From Arenimonas sp. (GTDB taxonomy: Bacteria; Pseudomonadota; Gammaproteobacteria; Xanthomonadales; Xanthomonadaceae), in assembly GCF_041919775.1 (NCBI RefSeq), contig NZ_JAYRTE010000006.1:13862-77861 (forward strand): a stretch of 64,000 nt of DNA, written 5' to 3'. The notes beneath the pieces were generated by a model. It saw only the letters and a list, made by a program, of their open reading frames with translations. It was not told the origin of the DNA and ran no database searches. This document shows, in pieces, positions 31,497-61,959 of the stretch; positions within the stretch are counted from its first letter, which is position 1; every line of letters begins with the position of its first letter. The position numbers and the translations under genes were made by a program.

Positions 31497-31997
31497 TCAT
31501 CCCGCGCTGGCGTCCGGAATCACGCCCTCGGGCCAGCAGGGCTGTTCGCCGCTGCCGGCCAGCGGGTAGTCGCAGCCGGCCAGGCCGGGCCTGCCTTCGC
31601 CATCGATGCGTACCCAGGCGGCCTGGCGGAACTGCCGGGCCAAGTGGTCGAGCACGGCGTCGTCGCCGCCCAGCACCAGGAAGCCGGGCTCGTTCCAGCT
31701 GCCGTCCTCGCTGCCGCCGTCCGAGGCCACGCGGACCAGGCCGAGTTCATCGATCGCCGCGCGCAGCGCCTCGTTCGCCGCTGCGTTCCGCGCGGATGAC
31801 TGTTCTTGGCCGAAGGGGTTCTCGCCGGTGACCAGGCCGCCGTGGCGGGCGCCGTGCTTCGCCATCAGCGCCGTCATGGCCGGGTTTGGCTCGCCGATGC
31901 GCAGGGCGATCACCTCGCCGTCAGCGTGCACGCGGTAAACCGCTTCGGCAAAGGCCTGCATCATCGCGGCCGGCGGTGGGTGGCGTGGCGTGTCCAT
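31497..31997 (-). CDS. DUF3293-like hypothetical protein
   Basis: Pattern resembles DUF3293 as recalled (GENPFGQ...N..A...L...I....GSWNEPGFLVLG). Unverified. Confidence 0.5.
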   Translation of the reverse strand: MDTPRHPPPAAMMQAFAEAVYRVHADGEVIALRIGEPNPAMTALMAKHGARHGGLVTGENPFGQEQSSARNAAANEALRAAIDELGLVRVASDGGSEDGSWNEPGFLVLGGDDAVLDHLARQFRQAAWVRIDGEGRPGLAGCDYPLAGSGEQPCWPEGVIPDASAG

Positions 31998-48183: not shown

Positions 48184-50340
<2,157 letters not shown>

Positions 50341-50823
50341 GTTGGTGGATCCCCGAAAAAGGAAAACAGCGATTGCCGCAAAGCGGCCGTGTTTTGCATC
50401 CCTGCCCCGGGTCCCCTGGGCGTTGCACCCTGCCACGCGAGCCTTCAAGGCTTCTCGTGTCAGCAGGAGATTCCACGCCACCCGGACGTGTGACGCAGAT
50501 CACATCTGCATGACACCCGGCCGACGCTAGCTTTACGGTTTTCGGTCGTCAAGCCGCAGTGCCGCATGAACGGCCTGGGCCGGTCCGGCCGGCGGTTGGT
50601 CAAGAAATGACCGCGGAAAACAAGCTGTTTTTTTGAAGGAGGTCGTCGGCGCGGCAGCCGGTGCCCGGGGCCCCCGGGACGGCCGCCGGGGCAAACTGCG
50701 CGAACGGCGGCCGACGAACGGTCGTGCGGGGGCCGCCCAAGGACGGGCGCCCCCCTGCTTGCGACACCCCGGGGGCCGAACTAGCCTCCGGAGACCGGGG
50801 GACGGGTCGGACAAGGGGTGGCG

Positions 50824-52838: not shown

Positions 52839-53010
52839 GCACTTAGCCGAGGAGCCTAGGGCTGACTCGCGAATAGAAGTAGATGGAGCATTGGATCAGG
52901 CTGCGGCGAGGAATTGCGCTGAAGCTGGATCGGCCCATTTCTGAGTTGCAAAGATGCAGTGCAGTACTGAGTTCGAGGCGCGAAAAAGCGCTCTCCACAG
53001 GGGGGGTAAC

Positions 53011-53907
53011 ATGGTTTCAAGTAAAGGGCGAGGCGAATCAGCGGAGGCAACACATTTCGCTGAATCCAAGTCGCGGGTTATTGCTAGTGCTGCTGCACTT
53101 TACAGCGCGCTGGCACCCCAGGCGGACTTGAGCTCAAGGGCAACCTTTTCACTGCTATCCTCGATCACGCTAATCGGCGTATCGCTGGCGGAAACCAAAC
53201 CCCAAACTGTACAACTTCTAGGGTTCACTTTTCAGAACCAGAGCTGGCTTGTTCTTGCAGGGACTTTGGCTCTTGTAGTTGCCTATTCAGTCGCCCTGTT
53301 GCTGCTTGCGTGGAGAGTGGAGTTGCGGCGACGCAGGTACGTAGCTGGTCCGGCTGCATTGAACTTGTCAATCGAGCTGAATTCACTGTCTGAGACAATC
53401 CCGGAGAAGATTCGAACTAAGTTGGATCTGGTGTTAGCTGACATAGAGCGGATCCAAGGTGATGCCAAGGAGTTCCAATCGACATACGAGGCGAAACTGG
53501 CCAATCTTGATTCGGAGGAGGCTGAACTCAAAGAGCGCCTACAGCGCAATGAGGCTGATCTGGCACTCGCGTACCGGGAGGGAAGGATTTCGATGCAAGC
53601 CATGCTCCAAGGTTTTTCGGACGGATACGAGGAGCAAAAAGAACTGCGGGAAAAGAGATTCAGGTTGAGATCAGAACAGGTAAGCAGAGGCGTATCTATT
53701 GGGCGTCAGTTGTCTGAATTGACCGAAGAGCATGGACGGTTCCATGAACTCCGGAGCGCCGAAATGAATTATGTGAAGGAGATGGCCAGAGAAATCGTGC
53801 TTGCGGGGGAGCTGAGTCTATATATGACTCGGTTAGGGCTCACCTTCCCAATTTTAGTTGCTGTGGCCGGATGGGCGACGTTTGCGTACAACGCTTTTCT
53901 CGGTTGA
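53011..53907 (+). CDS. hypothetical membrane coiled-coil protein (low-GC patch)
   Basis: Two central TM segments, a long charged coiled-coil (EAKLANLDSEEAELKERLQRNEADL...) and a C-terminal TM pair. G-rich RBS before the ATG at 53011; the ORF opens at 52954. Confidence 0.5.
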   Translation: MVSSKGRGESAEATHFAESKSRVIASAAALYSALAPQADLSSRATFSLLSSITLIGVSLAETKPQTVQLLGFTFQNQSWLVLAGTLALVVAYSVALLLLAWRVELRRRRYVAGPAALNLSIELNSLSETIPEKIRTKLDLVLADIERIQGDAKEFQSTYEAKLANLDSEEAELKERLQRNEADLALAYREGRISMQAMLQGFSDGYEEQKELREKRFRLRSEQVSRGVSIGRQLSELTEEHGRFHELRSAEMNYVKEMAREIVLAGELSLYMTRLGLTFPILVAVAGWATFAYNAFLG

Positions 53908-54071: not shown

Positions 54072-55973
54072 TCAACCCGCGCCGGCCTTGGAACCAGCCC
54101 GCAGCGTCATCCGAACCTCCACCGACCCAACAAAGTCCTCGCGGGTCATCGGACTCCACGACCAGGGATTGAGCGTCTCGACCGCCTCATCGCCCGAGAT
54201 CGGTCTCACTGACCCCAACCGCAGGTACTTGTAGCCTTTCCAGCCAGTGCCGGTGTTCTGGATGAAGGCGTAGACATCCGAGTCGTTCCTCTCCATGAAA
54301 AATACCTGCGGCCCTACCGGCGGGATGGGAACATTGAGGCCCCGCTTCGCCTGCGCCCGTGCCTTTACCTGCGCCGAGACGGCCTCGAGAAGCTTCTCGG
54401 CGAAGGCAACTTCTTCCGCGTCGGGTGCCCGGTTCAACGATCGCGCGAGTTCAGCCAGCCTTACGCCTTCGCGCCCGAGTTGGATGGCCACCGAGGCGCG
54501 CCTCCTGTCGGTGGCGACATCCCGGAGGCTGAAGATGAGCAGCTCGCCGTCCGCGCAGCGCCTGGCGTAGCGGTCGGCGCAGTGGCGCATGGCGATGGCC
54601 TCTTCAGCCAGTTCCCGGCCATTGGCCAGGGCTAGGGCGTACAGGCCACCGTCTTCAAGCTTGGGAACGAGCACGGGCCAGGACAGGCTCTCGCTCCGCG
54701 CCCTGATGCGACGTTCGTCGTCGGCAGCCTCGCGCTTCGCCGTGCCCCAGTAGCGCACGGGAGTAGTCTCGTTGGCTTGGGCATAGTTCGCCGCCCACCG
54801 CACGACTGGGCCCCATTCGTTCTCGATGAATTCCGCGCCTTTCCCCACCTTCGCGGCCCGGTGGTAGCGTTCGATGGCCTGGCGAGTGGCCCTCGCAGTC
54901 ACCGGCCAGACGACCGGGGGCACCACATGGCCGCGCGCCGGGTCCACGAAGGTTCTGGCCAGCGGCTCCCAGAGCGCCCGCGGGATGTGCACGCCTTCCG
55001 GCAAGCCGTCATGCAGCTTGGCCCAGTCGGTGAGGAAGGCGCAGAGGTGTTCCAGGGAACCGATCAACCCTTCCCGGTACATCTGCCACACGGGCTTGGC
55101 TGGGTCGTGCATCAGGAAGCGCCACTTGGCCGGAAGCAGGCCCTCGACGGCCACCGTTTGCCGGAACTTGGCCCAGTCCAGGCGACGCGGCTCGACTTTC
55201 CCGTGGCTGATCAGTTCGCCATAGAGCGGAACCAGGGCCGGGGCGATCCGCTGCAGTTCCAGCAGGGCCTCGCGATGCGCGAGGCAAAGGTTCCACCAGT
55301 TGGAAGGTACATCGTTGTTCCGGTGGCTTCGGGGACGGGCGCGACGGGCGACTTCCAGGAGCACTGGATCGACGCAAAGCGCCTCACGCAGACGTCGGCG
55401 CATTTGCAGGCCGTCAATGCACCGGCGGGCCAGGCACTCCATCACGCCCGCAAGCCAGTCCAGCGCCTGAGTCCTCAGATCACAGGCTTCCGGGTTGCGG
55501 CCGCCCAACTCTTTTGGCCCCTGCGTGCGGATGGCCTCCATCAGGGGTGCCACGGCCTCGGGTTCCCGCAGGGCTATCAGCCGCGCCCAGGTCCAACTGG
55601 GGAAGGGGGTGCCCACCTCGACTGGAATAGGCTCATAACCACCGACGGATCGCGGCATCTCTGCAGACACCTTCCCGTCAGCAAGGATCCGGTAGCGCAC
55701 CGTGTCGCAATGCACGATGACGCGGGCGTCAGACTCCTGCTCGATCCGCAGCCCCTGCCGAAAGCGCGCCAGCCAAGCTGACCACAAGGGCCGGACCGCC
55801 TCCCGAAGCGCGCGTTGCAGCCCTCGTCGCACGAATTTCGCGGGTACCGGGAGGCCCCGAGCCCAGGCGGTCATGTCTGCCGGCATGGGTCGCCGGGGCC
55901 TTGTCAGCAGACAGGCGTCGAGAGAGATGTGGGCGATGACGTCGCCCGGCGGGATGCGCTCAATCGATGACAT
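54072..55973 (-). CDS. PcfJ-like domain protein
   Basis: ELAEEAIAMRHCADRYARRCADGELLIFSLRD matches the PcfJ-like core (EG..M.HC...Y......G....fSlR) as recalled. GGAGAAG RBS before the ATG at 55973; 633 aa. Confidence 0.65.
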   Translation of the reverse strand: MSSIERIPPGDVIAHISLDACLLTRPRRPMPADMTAWARGLPVPAKFVRRGLQRALREAVRPLWSAWLARFRQGLRIEQESDARVIVHCDTVRYRILADGKVSAEMPRSVGGYEPIPVEVGTPFPSWTWARLIALREPEAVAPLMEAIRTQGPKELGGRNPEACDLRTQALDWLAGVMECLARRCIDGLQMRRRLREALCVDPVLLEVARRARPRSHRNNDVPSNWWNLCLAHREALLELQRIAPALVPLYGELISHGKVEPRRLDWAKFRQTVAVEGLLPAKWRFLMHDPAKPVWQMYREGLIGSLEHLCAFLTDWAKLHDGLPEGVHIPRALWEPLARTFVDPARGHVVPPVVWPVTARATRQAIERYHRAAKVGKGAEFIENEWGPVVRWAANYAQANETTPVRYWGTAKREAADDERRIRARSESLSWPVLVPKLEDGGLYALALANGRELAEEAIAMRHCADRYARRCADGELLIFSLRDVATDRRRASVAIQLGREGVRLAELARSLNRAPDAEEVAFAEKLLEAVSAQVKARAQAKRGLNVPIPPVGPQVFFMERNDSDVYAFIQNTGTGWKGYKYLRLGSVRPISGDEAVETLNPWSWSPMTREDFVGSVEVRMTLRAGSKAGAG

Positions 55974-56110
55974 CGGTCTTCTCCAGAAGTCCCGGACGCC
56001 CCGCCGGGGCGGGGCTTTAGCTGCATTTATGAGTCGCCCGCAAGTTGTCCGATAAATCGGCGACGGGGCCCGTGCCCCATGGACGCAGTGTGCGCCCGGT
56101 GTGTCTCAGA

Positions 56111-56764
56111 TCACGCGACCAAGCTGTTCTTCCGTAGCGGTACGCGAGACTTGGCGCCGGCAGCCTTGTGGATCTGCCCCACGGCGCGATCGAACTCATG
56201 GGCGAGTTCATGCAGGCGCGAGCTTTTAGCTCCTGCCCGCTTCAGAAGAACCTGGGAGATCGCTTCGTAATACTGCAACGTGCCCAGCTTCCCAGCCGTG
56301 AAACGTCGGAATACGCCCATTCCCGCCTTGCCATGGAGGTCGGCCAGGATGGCTCGGGCGTTGTGGAGCTTGTCGCAGGCCGTTACCAACAGCGACGTTC
56401 TGCTTTCGGCCTTGATGTGGGAAATGTACTTGAGCTTCCGCCTCGTCCAGTTCGTCACCTTGTCCTCCGTGGTCGCTGCCTTGCCCTCCGCAGTCCCGTC
56501 GGTGCAGTCCTTGACGATCGTGGCCACGGCGTCGCCGAACTGGGCCCGGATGGTGGCTTCGTGCGCGGCCCCGCAATCTTCCAGCACGTCGTGCAGCAGG
56601 CCCGCAATGGCCTGGTCCTCCGTGCCGCCGTACTCCAGCACCAGGCTCGAGACGCCAAGCAGGTGGTAGATGTAAGGAATCTTCGAGCCCTTGCGGAACT
56701 GGGCGGCGTGGGCGATGCGGGCGTAGTCGATCGCTTGGGTGTAGCGATGGGTCAGTGCCGTCAT
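56111..56764 (-). CDS. HD_4 (RelA/SpoT-type) metal-dependent hydrolase, small-alarmone-hydrolase-like
   Basis: AIDYARIAHAAQFRKGSKIPYIYHLLGVSSLVLEYGGTEDQAIAGLLHDVLED is the SpoT-hydrolase His...HD signature. AGGAGA RBS. Confidence 0.8.
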   Translation of the reverse strand: MTALTHRYTQAIDYARIAHAAQFRKGSKIPYIYHLLGVSSLVLEYGGTEDQAIAGLLHDVLEDCGAAHEATIRAQFGDAVATIVKDCTDGTAEGKAATTEDKVTNWTRRKLKYISHIKAESRTSLLVTACDKLHNARAILADLHGKAGMGVFRRFTAGKLGTLQYYEAISQVLLKRAGAKSSRLHELAHEFDRAVGQIHKAAGAKSRVPLRKNSLVA

Positions 56765-56782
56765 GGGTCCATTCTCCTGTCT

Positions 56783-57799
56783 TCAATGCGTGTCGGTTTC
56801 GGGGGTGCGGGCAAAGATGGTCCCTTCCAGGAAGCTGGTGGCCTCCTTCGGTGCCAAGGTCCGCACGAAGAATTCGCGGTACTTCTCCGTCGAGCTGATC
56901 CCGATGCCGCGGCCCAGCGGTCGCGTCCAAAGGGTGACATGCGGCGCCGTTGGCGCCAGGTAGGCACCAGAGGCCTCCGAAAGGCGCTGGCGGAAGGCGT
57001 TGAGCGCCGGGCACTCCACCGGCGTGACCACGCTGTACTCCAAGCCTGCAGGTTTGTTCTCGTGCAGAAGGACCGCTTCGCCCGAGGGACTGAGCGTCCA
57101 GTGCAGGGCGTCGAAGGCTTCCTTCCAGGCCTCTTCGGGCAGGTGGGCCACCAGCTCGTTGGCTTCGTCGGACGAGAGCAGGGTCAGGTGAAGCTCGCGC
57201 TTTGGCACCATGGGTAGCCAGTCCAGGACCTGGGGCGAGGGGAGCGGGCCCTTGCGGGCTTGCGGCAGCGGCAGGATGACCGAACCAGTTGAACTTCGCC
57301 CGGGCCATGCCGGCGGCCGGGTGGTGGCAAAGAGCGGGTCGGGTGGAGGGGCTGTGGCGGCTTGCAACTCAATACGAGGCGGACCCGTCGGTGCGCAGTC
57401 GGGCCAATTGCCCCGATAGATGGCCGCCACCAGGCGCAGCAGGGGCGAGGTCGGTTGCCCCTTGGCAGAGGGCGTCCAGAAGCTGAGCCCGATCGAGTCT
57501 TCCACGACGGCACCGCCACCCGGGCCCCGCAGCGTGATCTGCATGTCGGTGCCGTCGACCACCAACCCTGGCCGCTCTTGCCCTGGGTCGGGCTGGGCGA
57601 GCGTATCCCGGCACAGCGTTCGGAGTGATTGGCTCTGCTCCTCATCGAGTGCGAGCCACGGCCGCCAGTTCTCGTCGCTGGCAGAACGCATGCGACCTGG
57701 GGTGCCATCGACCGGCAGCTCGAATTCCCAGTACTTGGCAGTTCTTGACAAGAGAAAAGTGACTGAGGCGACAAGGTGAAAGGCGTGGGACGACGTCAT
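56783..57799 (-). CDS. unknown N-terminal domain fused to a LigT-like 2H phosphoesterase domain
   Basis: Two H-x-T-x motifs about 80 aa apart (ELHLTLL and APHVTLWT), with an upstream VILPLP strand as in LigT. The start ATG at 57799 overlaps the upstream stop (ATGA). The N-terminal ~180 aa are unrecognised. Confidence 0.6.
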   Translation of the reverse strand: MTSSHAFHLVASVTFLLSRTAKYWEFELPVDGTPGRMRSASDENWRPWLALDEEQSQSLRTLCRDTLAQPDPGQERPGLVVDGTDMQITLRGPGGGAVVEDSIGLSFWTPSAKGQPTSPLLRLVAAIYRGNWPDCAPTGPPRIELQAATAPPPDPLFATTRPPAWPGRSSTGSVILPLPQARKGPLPSPQVLDWLPMVPKRELHLTLLSSDEANELVAHLPEEAWKEAFDALHWTLSPSGEAVLLHENKPAGLEYSVVTPVECPALNAFRQRLSEASGAYLAPTAPHVTLWTRPLGRGIGISSTEKYREFFVRTLAPKEATSFLEGTIFARTPETDTH

Positions 57800-58317
57800 G
57801 GGGTTTGTTCCATGGCGGCAAGGGCTGCCCGCAACGTCGATCCATCGTCCGGTCGCGGCTGGGGCCCGCTGGCCTCGAATACCGTGCCGGCGAGGCACGC
57901 AGCGTTCAACATCGCAGCCACGCGCCGCAGTCCGCCGGTCGACTGTTGCCAGCGTGATTCGCAGACCGGGCAACTGAAATCCAGGCCACCCACGGACGGA
58001 TGGCCTCCCGCCGACACCAGGTAAGCGGTATTGCGGCAGGCGGGGCAGGGCTGCGTGCCGGGCGGGCCGCCGGACCAAAGCAGGCGCAGCGCCCCGATCG
58101 GCAGGGGTGACTGGCCGGGGCCGTAGCCGAGATTTCCATGCCGTTGCGGGAACGGTAGCCAGGGATCGGGCGCCAGTCCCAGGGACCACGTAGCTTGCAG
58201 GGTCCGGACGAGCGCGGCCGTCCCGGGGTCGCGTTGGCCCCCGGTCAGCGGCTGCACTGACGGGGCGATGGATGTCGAAGGGGTGTGGAGCGGGGTATTG
58301 CGGTCGAACGAAGCCAT
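57796..58317 (-). CDS. hypothetical small Zn-ribbon protein
   Basis: CPAC-x22-CPVC pair. GAGGAG RBS 7 nt before the ATG at 58317; 173 aa; Pro/Gly-rich N-terminal half. Confidence 0.5.
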   Translation of the reverse strand: MASFDRNTPLHTPSTSIAPSVQPLTGGQRDPGTAALVRTLQATWSLGLAPDPWLPFPQRHGNLGYGPGQSPLPIGALRLLWSGGPPGTQPCPACRNTAYLVSAGGHPSVGGLDFSCPVCESRWQQSTGGLRRVAAMLNAACLAGTVFEASGPQPRPDDGSTLRAALAAMEQTP

Positions 58318-58711
58318 TGGCGGTCTCCTCGGATGGGAGGGACATCGCCCCGGCGAACCGAAGGCGAACGCTTTACCAGTACTTGTAGATCGCCCTGGAA
58401 GTTGTCCCTTAAACCGGCGATATCGCTGTGGGGCGACAGGGATAGATTGGCGTACGGGAGTCTCATATGTCGAGAATGCCCAAGGCCGATGAATCGGCTG
58501 CCACCCTAGTACTCTCCCGGAAAGTGGCCGAAGAGCCTGGACTCCCGATTCCCCACGGCTTGGTTGCAGTACTTCTGCGCACGGACGAAGAATCGCTCCC
58601 AGGCTTCTCCGAGGCTCCGGTAGTCCGACATCATCTTCATGAAGGAATCCACGGCATCGCCGCGGTTGGAAGTGAATCGCCCCGGCTTCTCCGGAGGTCA
58701 TTTCGTTTGAG

Positions 58712-59432: not shown

Positions 59433-60407
59433 CTAGCGACTGGCTTTGCTTGTGGACGCTACGGGTGCGAGCACCTGGGCGATCCTAGATCCGATCCAGC
59501 GCGCGACCGCCGGAGTGACGCTGTTGCCGACAGCGTGATACCGCAGGCTCTCGAGTTTCGGCGAGTCATTCGACATCCCTGCTGGTAGAGTCCACCCCAA
59601 CGGGAAGCCTTGCACGCGTTCCACTTCGGACGACGTAAGTCGGCGAACTCGTCCGTCCGGATACCAGACGTAGTTCCGAGACCAATCAGTGCCCGTGTGC
59701 CGCGCCGACTCAGCGTAAATGCAATGCGCCATCGATTTGGTCATTGGGCCTTTGCGAGGATTTCCAACGATTTTCTGAAAGAGGGAGGCAGGTTTCTTCC
59801 CTGATCGTCCACTCTCCTCAGGATCCCCTTCGCTGCGTTCGGGCTCAAAAAGTATCTTTCCGGCACTGCTTGCGTCTCCAAGCACTCCAACAATGAAGAC
59901 TCGCCTACGTGATTGGGGGACTCCAAAATCTTTGCTGTTAAGCACACGCCACGCGAGACCATACCCGAGCTCGTCCAGCGCCTTGAGTACGATGGCGAAA
60001 TCACGTCCTCGGTGGCTAGTGAGCAGACCGTGGACGTTTTCGAGGACAACGGCTTTTGGAAGCCGCTCTCCCACGAGCTCAGCAAACCGATAAAACAATC
60101 CACTTTGGGCTCCTCCAAGCCCTGCTCTAGCGCCCATTCGCGCCAGTGAAAGGTCTTGGCATGGGAAGCCGCCTGTCCAGACTTCGGCTTCGGGGATTTC
60201 CTCACTTTTGACATCGTTAATATCCTCGCCGCAAGGGACGTCCGCCCAGTGCTGTTTCAGAATCGTCCGACAGAAAGTCTTCTTTTCGCATAAGTAGACG
60301 GTTTCAATCCCAGCATGCTCAAACCCGAGATCGAACCCGCCGATGCCCGAAAAGAAGGACGCGTGTCGTAATCTTTTACCCATTTTCCTAGCGCTACCAT
60401 CAGCCAT
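59433..60407 (-). CDS. DNA (cytosine-5)-methyltransferase
   Basis: Motif I FFSGIGGF, IV GFPCQDLS, VI LENV, VIII QSRRRVFIVG, X GNSVTPAV. Low-GC region. Confidence 0.9.
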   Translation of the reverse strand: MADGSARKMGKRLRHASFFSGIGGFDLGFEHAGIETVYLCEKKTFCRTILKQHWADVPCGEDINDVKSEEIPEAEVWTGGFPCQDLSLARMGARAGLGGAQSGLFYRFAELVGERLPKAVVLENVHGLLTSHRGRDFAIVLKALDELGYGLAWRVLNSKDFGVPQSRRRVFIVGVLGDASSAGKILFEPERSEGDPEESGRSGKKPASLFQKIVGNPRKGPMTKSMAHCIYAESARHTGTDWSRNYVWYPDGRVRRLTSSEVERVQGFPLGWTLPAGMSNDSPKLESLRYHAVGNSVTPAVARWIGSRIAQVLAPVASTSKASR

Positions 60408-60445
60408 AAATCAACGCCTCAAGAGCTTCCAATTTCCAATCCAAT

Positions 60446-61501
60446 ATGGTTCTCTCTCCCCTCGGCGAGAAGAGGGGAATCAATGTGCTCAGTATAAAGT
60501 GGCGCCCGAGCGGCGGTCGCGGAGAGTACGAATACAAGGCTAAGGGCGCGGACGTGCTCGAAAAGCGTATTGATGTCCAGATTCCAGTCACGTTGGTGAT
60601 CATTCCCACTGATGCGCACTTCCGAATAAAAGACGGAAAGCCGAGGCTCAGACGGGAGAATCCTAACGACCGCAGCATTCTCAATGTCCCGCCGCTCGTT
60701 GCGGCGATAGCCGGCTTGCCAGAGCCACGGAGGCAGGACCAAGGGGAGCCGGCTGATCTCCCGTTGTCCTCTAAGTCATACGTGGTGGACGAAATACTTT
60801 TCGACATCGTTAGTTCGGACCAAGCAAGAGTTGTAATTAAGCCTGTGCTTCTAAAGCCACGAAATAGTTTCGAATACGTCGATATCGAAGCACGCATTCA
60901 AGATCTAGTCTCCGCAAAGCAAACTCACCAGGCGGTTGCTGACTTGCTTGTTAAAACCGGCGCTGGCGTTAATGACGCGAAAATTCTCAGCGTTGCAGCA
61001 AACTCAGCGCATGAAGTCTATCCATACAGTGGAGGTGAGGCTTCACTGCACACTCCACCCCCGCAATCAGTTTCCGAAGAAGTGGTCGACGAAATAGTTG
61101 AAGACTACGTGGGAACCGAGGGCAAGGTGAAGGTTCGAATCCATCGGCAGAAAGAGCGTGACAAAAAGCTTGTAAGAATTGCTAAGAAAAAATTCAAGTT
61201 GCAGTTCGGTAAGATCTTTTGCGAATGCTGCGGAATCGACTTTCAAGAGTCATATTCAGAGATCGGCGTGGATTTCATTGAGGCACACCATCGAGTTCCA
61301 ATCAGCCAAGTTGACGAGGGTGCCAAGACCGCCGTCGATGACTTGGCGATGCTTTGCCCCAACTGCCACCGCATGGTTCATAAGACACCCGATTGTTCGA
61401 TCGAATTGGTTCAGGAGCTCATTCAACAGAACAACTCATTCATCAACGCATCCAACGTAGCGCTTCTTGACGAACTGAGCCCCGCAGACCAAGCAGAATA
61501 G
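60446..61501 (+). CDS. HNH nuclease with unrecognised N-terminal domain (putative restriction endonuclease)
   Basis: C-terminal CECCG...EAHHRVPIS...LCPNCHRMVH beta-beta-alpha-Me/HNH with two CxxC pairs. Divergent from the m5C methyltransferase. An alternative GTG start lies at 60485. Confidence 0.7.
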   Translation: MVLSPLGEKRGINVLSIKWRPSGGRGEYEYKAKGADVLEKRIDVQIPVTLVIIPTDAHFRIKDGKPRLRRENPNDRSILNVPPLVAAIAGLPEPRRQDQGEPADLPLSSKSYVVDEILFDIVSSDQARVVIKPVLLKPRNSFEYVDIEARIQDLVSAKQTHQAVADLLVKTGAGVNDAKILSVAANSAHEVYPYSGGEASLHTPPPQSVSEEVVDEIVEDYVGTEGKVKVRIHRQKERDKKLVRIAKKKFKLQFGKIFCECCGIDFQESYSEIGVDFIEAHHRVPISQVDEGAKTAVDDLAMLCPNCHRMVHKTPDCSIELVQELIQQNNSFINASNVALLDELSPADQAE

Positions 61502-61882: not shown

Positions 61883-61959
61883 TGGTGGCTATGGGTGGAC
61901 TCGAACCACCGACCCCGTCATTATGAGTGACGTGCTCTAACCGGCTGAGCTACATAGCC
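61883..61959 (-). tRNA. tRNA-Met (CAT anticodon, elongator-like)
   Basis: The reverse complement GGCTATGTAGCTCAGCCGGTTAGAGCACGTCACTCATAATGACGGGGTCGGTGGTTCGAGTCCACCCATAGCCACCA folds as a cloverleaf. It closely resembles E. coli metT and encodes the CCA end. Confidence 0.93.

Follow-up and report, generated by a model that had tools for sequence, protein, structure and literature searches.

What do four neighbouring genes, two of which encode candidate "eraser" enzymes of nucleotide marks, do side by side on a bacterial chromosome, and what controls them? The question is raised by a block on the minus strand of a 64,000-nucleotide stretch of an Arenimonas sp. genome (contig NZ_JAYRTE010000006.1, assembly GCF_041919775.1), which in its full length is called the window hereafter and has a G+C content of about 70%. 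The block, or cassette, is composed of g1 (57796-58317; 173 amino acids, aa), g2 (56783-57799; 338 aa), g3 (56111-56764; 217 aa) and g4 (54072-55973; 633 aa), all on the minus strand. That the four genes are co-directional, that g1 and g2 overlap by ATGA (57799-57796) and that gaps of 18 and 137 nucleotides (nt) precede g3 and g4 had been stated in a preliminary description of the locus, and can be read directly from the sequence. The 18-nt spacer between g2 and g3, agacAGGAGAatggaccc, contains AGGAGA ahead of the g3 ATG, and the 137-nt gap between g3 and g4 extends from 56110 to 55974. In the window the cassette is an island remnant beside a tRNA-Met gene and is organized as two transcription units, g1-g2-g3 and g4; it is an unnamed, rare combination of known domain families.

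SAM-II-type aptamers in both leaders

Each of the two transcription units is headed by an element that is best described as an aptamer of the SAM-II class, for which S-adenosylmethionine (SAM) would be the most likely ligand. The preliminary description had given the size of the g3-g4 gap correctly and had missed the aptamers, of which one lies in this gap and the other in the g1 leader. The gap measures 135-137 nt at most related loci (designated here by L numbers) and 120-126 nt at L004 and L007, and its core is nearly invariant across loci with g4 proteins that are only 30-65% identical, a conservation above that of coding sequence. The aptamer in the gap, copy A, spans 56015-56066 on the minus strand and has a P1 stem of GTCGCC/GGCGAC, a loop L1 of GAUUU and pseudoknot strands CUUGC and GCUAAAG; a hairpin, P0, is found ahead of it at 56065-56078 on the same strand. 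Copy B, in the g1 leader, spans 58371-58423 on the minus strand, with P1 ATCGCC/GGCGAT, L1 GGUUU and pseudoknot strands CUUCC and GGUAAAG. The aptamers are about 52 nt long and have the fold of an H-type pseudoknot.

In an Rfam scan, SAM_alpha was the sole relevant similarity of copy A, at 17.9 bits (E 1.2) against a cut-off of 36. The leaders of L016 (25.3 bits) and L008 reach about 25 bits, still below that cut-off, and copy B was not reported in the scan at E ≤ 10; it was found independently by a regular-expression pattern scan. With a covariance model, the window yields exactly two copies, both on the minus strand and at 70 bits each, copy B having belonged to the training set of the model that scores it. 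Further copies outside the training set are found by the same model in L016, L001 and L149. Since both window aptamers lie below the Rfam cut-off, standard pipelines will not annotate them.

The fold is supported by covariation in an alignment that was built from islands, phage contigs and metagenomes and comprises 31 distinct copies of the variant type. P1 and the loop-to-tail pseudoknot comprise 13 pairs, for which 97.4% of the alignment cells are paired, and 6 of these pairs show compensatory changes, in columns that the retrieval pattern had left free. Of 500 column shuffles, none was as good, and slid controls gave at most two compensatory pairs. Thermodynamic folding of the leaders returned z-scores of about -1 and is uninformative, as expected for a pseudoknot.

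The ligand contacts of SAM-II can be mapped onto both copies. In SAM-II, U21 and G22 sandwich the adenine of SAM, which also forms a pair with the unpaired U44; the major groove holds U10-U12 of L1, and the sulfonium faces O4 of U11 and U21 (PMC3303485). In the mapping used here, UUU of L1 corresponds to U10-U12, CUUGC holds U21 and G22, and GC-U-AAAG holds C43, U44 and A45-A47. All SAM-contact residues, namely U10-U12, U21, G22, U44, A45 and A46, are kept in copy A, where they coincide with invariant alignment columns. Copy B keeps every contact except G22, which is replaced by C and offset by a change of C43 to G. This exchange of G22-C43 for C-G is accompanied by a change from A to G in the L1 base before UUU, and the three positions are correlated without exception across 9 sequences of type B and 22 of type A. 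The B copies may stem from a single event, because all of them come from one island family. The coordinated three-position swap beside the ligand pocket provides a ready comparison of specificity between copies A and B.

In comparison with the SAM-II riboswitch (RF00521, SAM_alpha; the metX/metA motif), the window aptamers have the same H-type pseudoknot, in which CUUGC in the 3' part of the P1 loop is matched with a GC-U-AAAG tail, the UUU of L1 serves as the third strand, and the loop and tail lengths are alike. The differences lie in the inner loop, in where the Shine-Dalgarno (SD) sequence lies and in the genes that follow. Instead of a small UGA...UCA hairpin, the inner loop contains a single-stranded, A-rich stretch (AUCGGACAA / AAGGGACAA) with complementarity to the anti-SD further downstream; the SD sequence is situated 35-45 nt downstream behind two hairpins, and not inside the pseudoknot; and the aptamers precede island cargo (g1-g2-g3 and g4) rather than genes for methionine or SAM. 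The elements are filed as a SAM-II variant, and not as plain members, because of the failed Rfam score test and the unusual gene context.

Aptamers in the related islands are always on the sense strand, 40-155 nt upstream of start codons, and precede g1, 2H, HD_4, g4-type and approximately 149-aa genes. Related loci with more than one operon have two to three aptamer copies, and one or two are present in L010, L016 and L149/L150. In L001 (14071-14123) and L008 (5700-5752), a third SAM-II aptamer of canonical type (about 25 Rfam bits in L008) is found ahead of an orphan gene for a protein of approximately 149 aa downstream of g4. The window has neither this gene nor its leader; there, g4 is followed by a low-GC patch instead.

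The textbook role of SAM riboswitches is the control of methionine and SAM metabolism. In the present case, SAM-II-fold aptamers head both operons of a mobile-island module with no metabolic link to SAM and, if this is confirmed, mobile elements would time the expression of accessory genes by the SAM level of the host. As far as could be checked, SAM-II-type aptamers that govern mobile-island genes, including a pocket-adjacent triple variant, represent a new regulatory layer, and no report of SAM-II elements carried by mobile elements came up in a literature search.

Expression platforms and promoter region

The expression platform of the g1 operon (58318-58370, minus strand) comprises a covarying hairpin, H3, followed by an anti-SD segment, GUCCCUCC, that is paired with the SD sequence GGAGAC. 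The platform is conserved, with compensatory changes in H3 between the window, L149 and L008, and the SD-sequestering hairpin is present in the minimum-energy fold. The aptamer loop AGGGACA of copy B is complementary to UGUCCCU. In the g4 leader, the platform (55974-56014, minus strand) is composed of a GC hairpin H3 (56014-55999) that covaries between loci, a GUCCGG segment and the SD sequence GGAGAAG (55984-55978), and its GUCCG has two complements, the aptamer loop CGGAC and a portion of the SD sequence. The two leader types share the upstream hairpin P0, the covarying H3 directly after the aptamer and a pyrimidine-rich segment that pairs with the SD sequence. This segment, UGUCC[C/G], is also complementary to the aptamer inner loop, [G/C]GGACA, with one position covarying between A and B, and its complementarity to both the SD sequence and the inner loop suggests a relay between aptamer and SD. 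To our knowledge, ligand binding keeps the genes off in all known SAM riboswitches, and it is because of this behaviour that an OFF direction is proposed here.

The promoter-like region of the g1 operon is located at 58439-58475 on the minus strand and contains an inverted repeat formed by TCTCGACATATGAGAC (58475-58460) and GCCAATCTATCCC (58451-58439). Both blocks, unlike the sequence beyond them on the upstream side, are kept in five leaders (the window, L003, L018, L149 and L008); a sigma-70 consensus was not found in the region. A TGAGAC motif is conserved approximately 30-40 nt upstream of both aptamers (58460-58475 and 56097-56102 in the window), being part of TCTCGACATATGAGAC in the g1 leader and, in the g4 leader, following the stop codon of g3 immediately. 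A promoter or operator element common to both leaders is conceivable. A search of the cassette for intrinsic terminators and sigma-70 promoters returned none.

The encoded proteins

The g3 product matches Pfam HD_4 at 75.2 bits (E 6e-21; cut-off 27.2) over aa 11-162 of 217 and is composed of this single domain, with no synthetase domain; the RelA/SpoT model is matched over the N-terminal 122 positions only. Comparison with the Protein Data Bank (PDB) returned 7QOE (E 1e-31) and 7QOC (E 1.6e-22), with a weaker match to MESH1 (5vxa). The His...HD signature of RelA/SpoT hydrolases that had been noticed earlier is borne out by the HD_4 match above cut-off and by the catalytic H...HD...ED...D residues, which lie in YHLL, LLHDVLED and DKLHN and are matched by identical residues in the alignments with 7QOE and 7QOC. 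We take these two structures to be the RelH enzymes of Leptospira and Corynebacterium. Judged by its motifs, g3 is a single-domain small alarmone hydrolase of the RelA/SpoT HD type with an intact set of active-site residues. The HD_4 hydrolase is the best conserved member of the cassette (65-82% identity across related loci), and HD_4 hydrolases are present in 47 phage records.

The known small alarmone hydrolases (the RelH type of 7QOE and 7QOC, Mesh1, and the antitoxins of toxSAS modules) and g3 have in common a single HD_4 domain, about 200 aa long, with the same signature. The differences are that g3 has no adjacent toxSAS or other synthetase, is island-encoded and is situated behind a SAM-II-type leader. 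Alarmone hydrolases are said to have been described as toxSAS antitoxins by Jimmy et al. in 2020. When such a module was looked for, no synthetase of the RelA_SpoT type was found among the cassette proteins or in the Pfam lists of related neighbourhoods, which is in line with the earlier observation that no cyclase, synthetase or known effector is nearby.

The g2 protein is composed of an N-terminal alpha/beta domain (aa 1-135), a linker of low confidence and a putative C-terminal 2H phosphoesterase domain (aa ~164-330), in a predicted structure (AlphaFold2) with a mean confidence (pLDDT) of 79. Two HxTx motifs about 80 aa apart had been described; they are HLTL (H204) and HVTL (H287), separated by 83 aa, and their H and T are invariant in 15 relatives. 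The Pfam scores are 18.9 bits for 2H-SAK (E 0.0019) and 15.2 bits for 2_5_RNA_ligase2 (E 0.022), both below the cut-off of 27. Within the family, 2H-SAK is matched by five members, LigT_PEase by four and 2_5_RNA_ligase2 by two at E ≤ 0.01, all of them at scores below cut-off. Foldseek relates the C-terminal domain to Usb1, Acb1 and LigT at E 0.04-0.5, and a profile search of PDB sequences with g2 returned nothing.

Shorter relatives of g2 (190-242 aa) align to residues ~164-330 only, so the N-terminal ~135 residues form a separate, family-specific domain. The approximately 180 unrecognised residues of the earlier description cover the domain of aa 1-135 and the linker; a resemblance of this domain to Mago nashi (Foldseek E 0.01) is weak and is treated as a lead only. 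Sixteen relatives of g2 were found among 5.8 billion clusters. They include P0015, a fusion of an ADP-ribosylglycohydrolase (ARH) with a 2H domain; a DUF3293-2H-SAK fusion is present in L018. Taken with the ARH and PTP-SAK genes nearby, the two fusions suggest a chemistry of nucleotides or RNA ends. Among 2H phosphoesterases (LigT/ThpR, Usb1, phage Acb1 and 2H-SAK, PF22547), g2 is alike in its two HxT motifs and in weak profile and fold matches, and it differs in its Pfam scores below cut-off and in the fused Mago-like domain of ~135 aa (E 0.01), the place of which is taken by an N-terminal ARH or DUF3293 domain in relatives.

As previously described, g1 is a Zn-ribbon protein, with a CxxC...CxxC arrangement and weak matches only to zinc-ribbon families in profile scans. 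It has 14 relatives among 5.8 billion proteins and occurs only in the window, L003, L018 and L149/L150, where it is directly upstream of the gene with the 2H domain and its stop codon overlaps the start of that gene.

The g4 protein appears to be a divergent PcfJ-like protein. Its own Pfam score of 20.3 bits is below the PcfJ cut-off of 25, and the PcfJ-like core that had been proposed holds through 14 of 17 relatives that match PcfJ at E ≤ 0.01 and through a predicted fold like that of phage PcfJ-like proteins. In the predicted structure (AlphaFold2, pLDDT 87) searched against BFVD, 33 phage proteins were returned at E ≤ 1e-3, mostly named PcfJ-like. The conserved core is EEAIAMRHCADRY...C...G and contains the H-C motif of the family (MRHCAD); C465 is invariant and H464 nearly invariant in the aligned relatives. 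An exhaustive profile search links g4 to 2516 cluster representatives, some of them above the Pfam cut-off (for example P0063 at 36.4 bits), and 19 close relatives are present among 5.8 billion clusters. A hypothetical protein recorded for Arenimonas sp. has the same sequence as g4 (100% identity). No relative was found in the PDB by sequence or profile, and Foldseek against the same structures gave noise only (sliding clamps, TM ~0.06). With the PcfJ-like proteins (PF14284) of conjugative elements and large phages, g4 has in common the H-C core, the full-length predicted fold and the profile link to more than 2500 representatives; it differs as a branch under the Pfam cut-off with no tblastn match in the plasmid and phage collections. 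We know of no function for the PcfJ-like family, and a literature search returned nothing relevant on PcfJ-like or DUF3293 proteins; a profile or sequence search of the PDB for DUF3293 relatives likewise returned nothing. A PcfJ-like protein that is paired with an alarmone hydrolase and a 2H enzyme, and that shares their regulation, offers an entry into this large family.

Synteny and the island family

Among species-representative genomes, the 2H domain is found in metagenome-assembled genomes of Lysobacteraceae and in one of Fimbriimonadaceae. The 2H domain and the HD_4 gene occur together at every related locus whose contig is long enough to judge. They are accompanied by a relative of g4 in the window, L001-L003, L004/L005, L007, L008, L012 and L016/L017; this relative is absent only in L149/L150 and in contigs that end first. 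The order of the window is found in L001, L003 and L008. It is HD-2H-g4 in L012, 2H (190 aa)-HD-g4 in L016, and 2H ... HD-DUF3293-g4-g4' in L004 and L007; in L018, HD-g4 is separated by about 9 kb from a g1 relative that is followed by the DUF3293-2H-SAK fusion. The linkage thus persists through changed gene order and through divergence of g4 to about 30% identity. Of the four-gene synteny that had been suggested, the association of 2H, HD_4 and PcfJ-like genes stands; the constancy of g1 and of the order does not, and g4 is replaceable, as in L149.

The carrier is a small, rare family of tRNA-associated genomic islands of the integrase/AlpA type in Lysobacteraceae, of which the block is conserved cargo. 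The L149 island carries a P4-type integrase, AlpA, an Xre/MbcA-ParS antitoxin-like gene and Dcm/Vsr, and an integrase is also present in L001 and L004. Other recurrent cargo includes ADP-ribosylglycohydrolase, DUF3293, PTP-SAK phosphatase, WYL regulators, the ~149-aa protein and a 216-aa protein. A former integrative and conjugative element or plasmid, which the preliminary description had considered possible, is replaced by this chromosomal island, since neither plasmid matches nor conjugation genes were found: g2 and g4 were without a tblastn match in a collection of 72,556 plasmids, g4 had none in the phage collection either, and the matches of g3 in the plasmid collection are generic HD proteins. 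The view that the cassette is not a named system agrees with a search of PADLOC-DB 2.0, in which no component model matches any of the four proteins at E ≤ 1. With ten neighbour proteins of the relatives, PADLOC returned only PDC-M72B and a weak PDC-S11.

In L149/L150 a Zeta-toxin-like gene is situated in place of g4. In L149 (12296-12814) it encodes a P-loop protein of 172 aa (Pfam E 9e-7) with no preceding aptamer, in an island that is otherwise intact. A family of 213-216 aa with a conserved RNQLVHGG motif (Rx4H, HEPN-like) recurs in related islands and is absent from the window; its members are located in L001 (8477-9127), L008 (6330-6980), L016 (3131-3772), L018 (5195-5845), L149 (9139-9789) and, on the minus strand, L004 (3940-4587). 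An assignment of this family as a HEPN RNase had the motif as its sole basis, with no match in Pfam or PADLOC, and was dropped.

Possible function of the cassette

The reading that we tentatively prefer, while placing it somewhat short of an even chance, is that the cassette is a SAM-gated module of eraser enzymes that acts for the benefit of the element, either by resetting the state of the host or as counter-defence. Binding of SAM would keep the module off through the conserved SD-sequestering hairpins, and a falling SAM level, upon starvation or the destruction of SAM by a phage, would allow it to be expressed. The g3 enzyme would then hydrolyse (p)ppGpp or (p)ppApp, or might take the 3'-pyrophosphate off tRNA, and g2 would open a 2',3'-cyclic phosphate or a 2'-5' linkage in an RNA end, an ADP-ribose-derived compound or a cyclic nucleotide. 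Together the two could erase nucleotide marks of stress or immunity to the advantage of the element, with g4 and g1 as presumptive partners in the module. Host reset or counter-defence is favoured because of the eraser chemistry, because a synthetase, cyclase or recognisable effector is lacking, and because HD_4 hydrolases occur in phages.

Several points weigh against this reading. There is no chemical link between SAM and the encoded enzymes, g1 is inconstant, and g4 is replaced in L149/L150. The window aptamers are below the Rfam SAM_alpha cut-off (A at 17.9 bits, B unreported), and copy B alters G22, which stacks on the adenine of SAM, so that its ligand could differ. Modelling of SD accessibility by constrained folding gave a weak trend towards OFF with ligand for B leaders (0.20 versus 0.31-0.39) and none for A. 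The enzyme activities, ligand binding and expression considered here are predictions from sequence. Lastly, the neighbourhoods contain defence-like genes (WYL regulators, the PDC-M72B candidate, and the Zeta-toxin-like and Rx4H proteins), which would fit defence equally.

A second line of defence, or abortive infection, is indeed conceivable and in our estimate unlikely. SAM riboswitches would silence the operons, a collapse of SAM brought about by a phage, through a SAM lyase or otherwise, would de-repress them, and the hydrolases would act as antidotes or resetters for a toxic effector, which might be g4, g1 or the N-domain of g2, or else, in the related islands, the Zeta-toxin-like protein or the Rx4H protein of 216 aa. 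Integrase/AlpA islands with Dcm/Vsr or Dcm/HNH, a block of SNF2 and methylase genes, WYL regulators and PDC-M72B would be fitting surroundings for such a system; the entry of a Zeta-toxin-like gene into the g4 slot, the weak OFF trend of the B leaders with ligand and the role of alarmone hydrolases as toxSAS antitoxins would fit it as well. However, PADLOC has no match for the four proteins, no toxin, nuclease, nucleotidyltransferase or membrane effector is recognisable in the window cassette, the neighbourhood Pfam lists contain no toxSAS synthetase, and the Rx4H protein lacks Pfam support and is absent from the window. In a further alternative, the 2H domain would open the 2',3'-cyclic phosphates left by anticodon or HEPN-type nucleases and the HD hydrolase would strip the 3'-pyrophosphate added by toxSAS from the CCA end of tRNA; in relatives, further kinds of RNA adduct would be cleared by ARH and the PTP-SAK phosphatase, and host ligases would complete the repair. 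The best Pfam match of g2 is to the 2H domain of 'Swiss Army Knife' RNA-repair proteins, its Foldseek matches include Usb1 and LigT, and the extended neighbourhoods contain PTP-SAK phosphatase, ARH and the ARH-2H fusion P0015. RNA-repair systems are, reportedly from the work of Burroughs and Aravind in 2016, usually equipped with an RNA ligase, a kinase and a Hen1-type methylase. None of these three components (for the ligase, RtcB or ATP-grasp Rnl) is present in the neighbourhood listings, and every Pfam score of g2 to a 2H family is below cut-off, so that we consider such end healing very unlikely.

The genes might also share no mechanism at all, being independent cargo that is adjacent by recent common descent, with a leader type in common since the island re-uses a regulatory cassette. 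Few full-length relatives exist, 14-19 for each protein among 5.8 billion, and they come from one bacterial family, so that the synteny is of shallow phylogenetic depth; g1 and g4 are dispensable at some loci; and the same leader type precedes the unrelated ~149-aa gene. Against this stands the survival of the linkage through rearrangement (L012, L016 and L004/L007) and through divergence of g4 to ~30% identity, and we hold independent cargo to be distinctly unlikely. A more speculative version of SAM gating, which we regard as quite improbable, treats the riboswitch regulon as a metabolic tripwire: loss of SAM or, for the B variant, another adenosyl ligand (SAM-derived or of the ADP-ribose type) would switch on the erasers and the PcfJ-like proteins. 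If true, this would be an immune or counter-immune module gated by a metabolite riboswitch, and the first functional handle on PcfJ-like proteins.

Occurrence of the aptamer type elsewhere

The same DNA pattern was found at 120 or more metagenome loci, mostly as canonical SAM-II elements. Several of these canonical elements reach the Rfam cut-off, and the canonical elements precede genes for Cys/Met enzymes dependent on pyridoxal phosphate, MetX-like genes and metA genes. Copies of the A variant (GAUUUA...AACUUGC) are situated upstream of the SAM synthetase gene (metK) in L080 and L033, and others precede genes for orphan proteins or an AAA_5 ATPase. Tandem pairs of SAM-II-type elements are present in metagenome contigs L080 (1008-1164, minus strand), L086 (69-239), L054 (165-309), L033 (14208-14369) and L095 (178-344). 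In the pairs with a canonical copy (L080 and L086), the canonical element comes first and the variant second, and in L080 a terminator-like stem with a U-run comes after the canonical copy. Downstream of the pair lies metK in L080, and orphan genes are found there in L086 and L054.

In six low-GC phage contigs (L020 at 2535-2581 on the minus strand, L022-L025 and L027), an aptamer of the same type is placed right after a TTGACA-17-TAAGAT promoter, and the SD sequence abuts GCUAAAG as in classical SAM-II. The downstream gene encodes a sliding-clamp-like protein of 216 aa (Pfam DNA_pol3_beta_2, E 2e-10), so the element looks like a SAM-II-like switch on a replication gene. A kinship of this protein with the 216-aa island protein was considered and dropped, the two being unrelated. 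The combination of phage leader and clamp gene was not found in GenBank phages, and a loose B-type pattern gave 120 chance matches in viral contigs, none with a credible P1.

Genomic setting of the cassette

The cassette, as read from its composition, is foreign DNA relative to the surrounding chromosome: its third-position GC is 0.74-0.82, versus about 0.9 in the flanking core genes. The decayed-island setting that had been proposed is apparent from this value, from a low-GC patch at 53-54 kb of the window, from two transposase fragments near the cassette (Pfam rve_3 and HTH_38) and from a pair of Dcm and HNH genes. The tRNA-Met gene is located at 61883-61959, and a search for an att repeat of its 3' end found none, so the island border could not be placed. 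Between the transposase fragments and tRNA-Met, a low-GC segment (59433-61501) contains a Dcm-type C5 methylase gene on the minus strand and a gene for an HNH endonuclease-type protein of 351 aa on the plus strand; in L003, a methylase 46% identical to the window Dcm adjoins the same cassette. Directly downstream of g4, an open reading frame of 317 aa (52954-53907, plus strand) lies in a patch of 52% G+C. Its sole Pfam match is a weak one to the UPF0242 N-terminus (E 2e-5), and it has no counterpart in the related islands.

Two further genes of the window were noted. A DUF3293 protein (Pfam E 3e-17) is encoded at 31497-31997 on the minus strand, in a core-like chromosomal region; members of this family adjoin or are fused to the island HD_4 and 2H genes in L004, L007, L016 and L018. 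At 48184-50481 on the minus strand, an open reading frame of 765 aa has, by its translation, the subtilisin-type motifs GTHVAGT and GTSMAAPHVAG and a poly-proline linker, and appears to be ordinary core-genome content.

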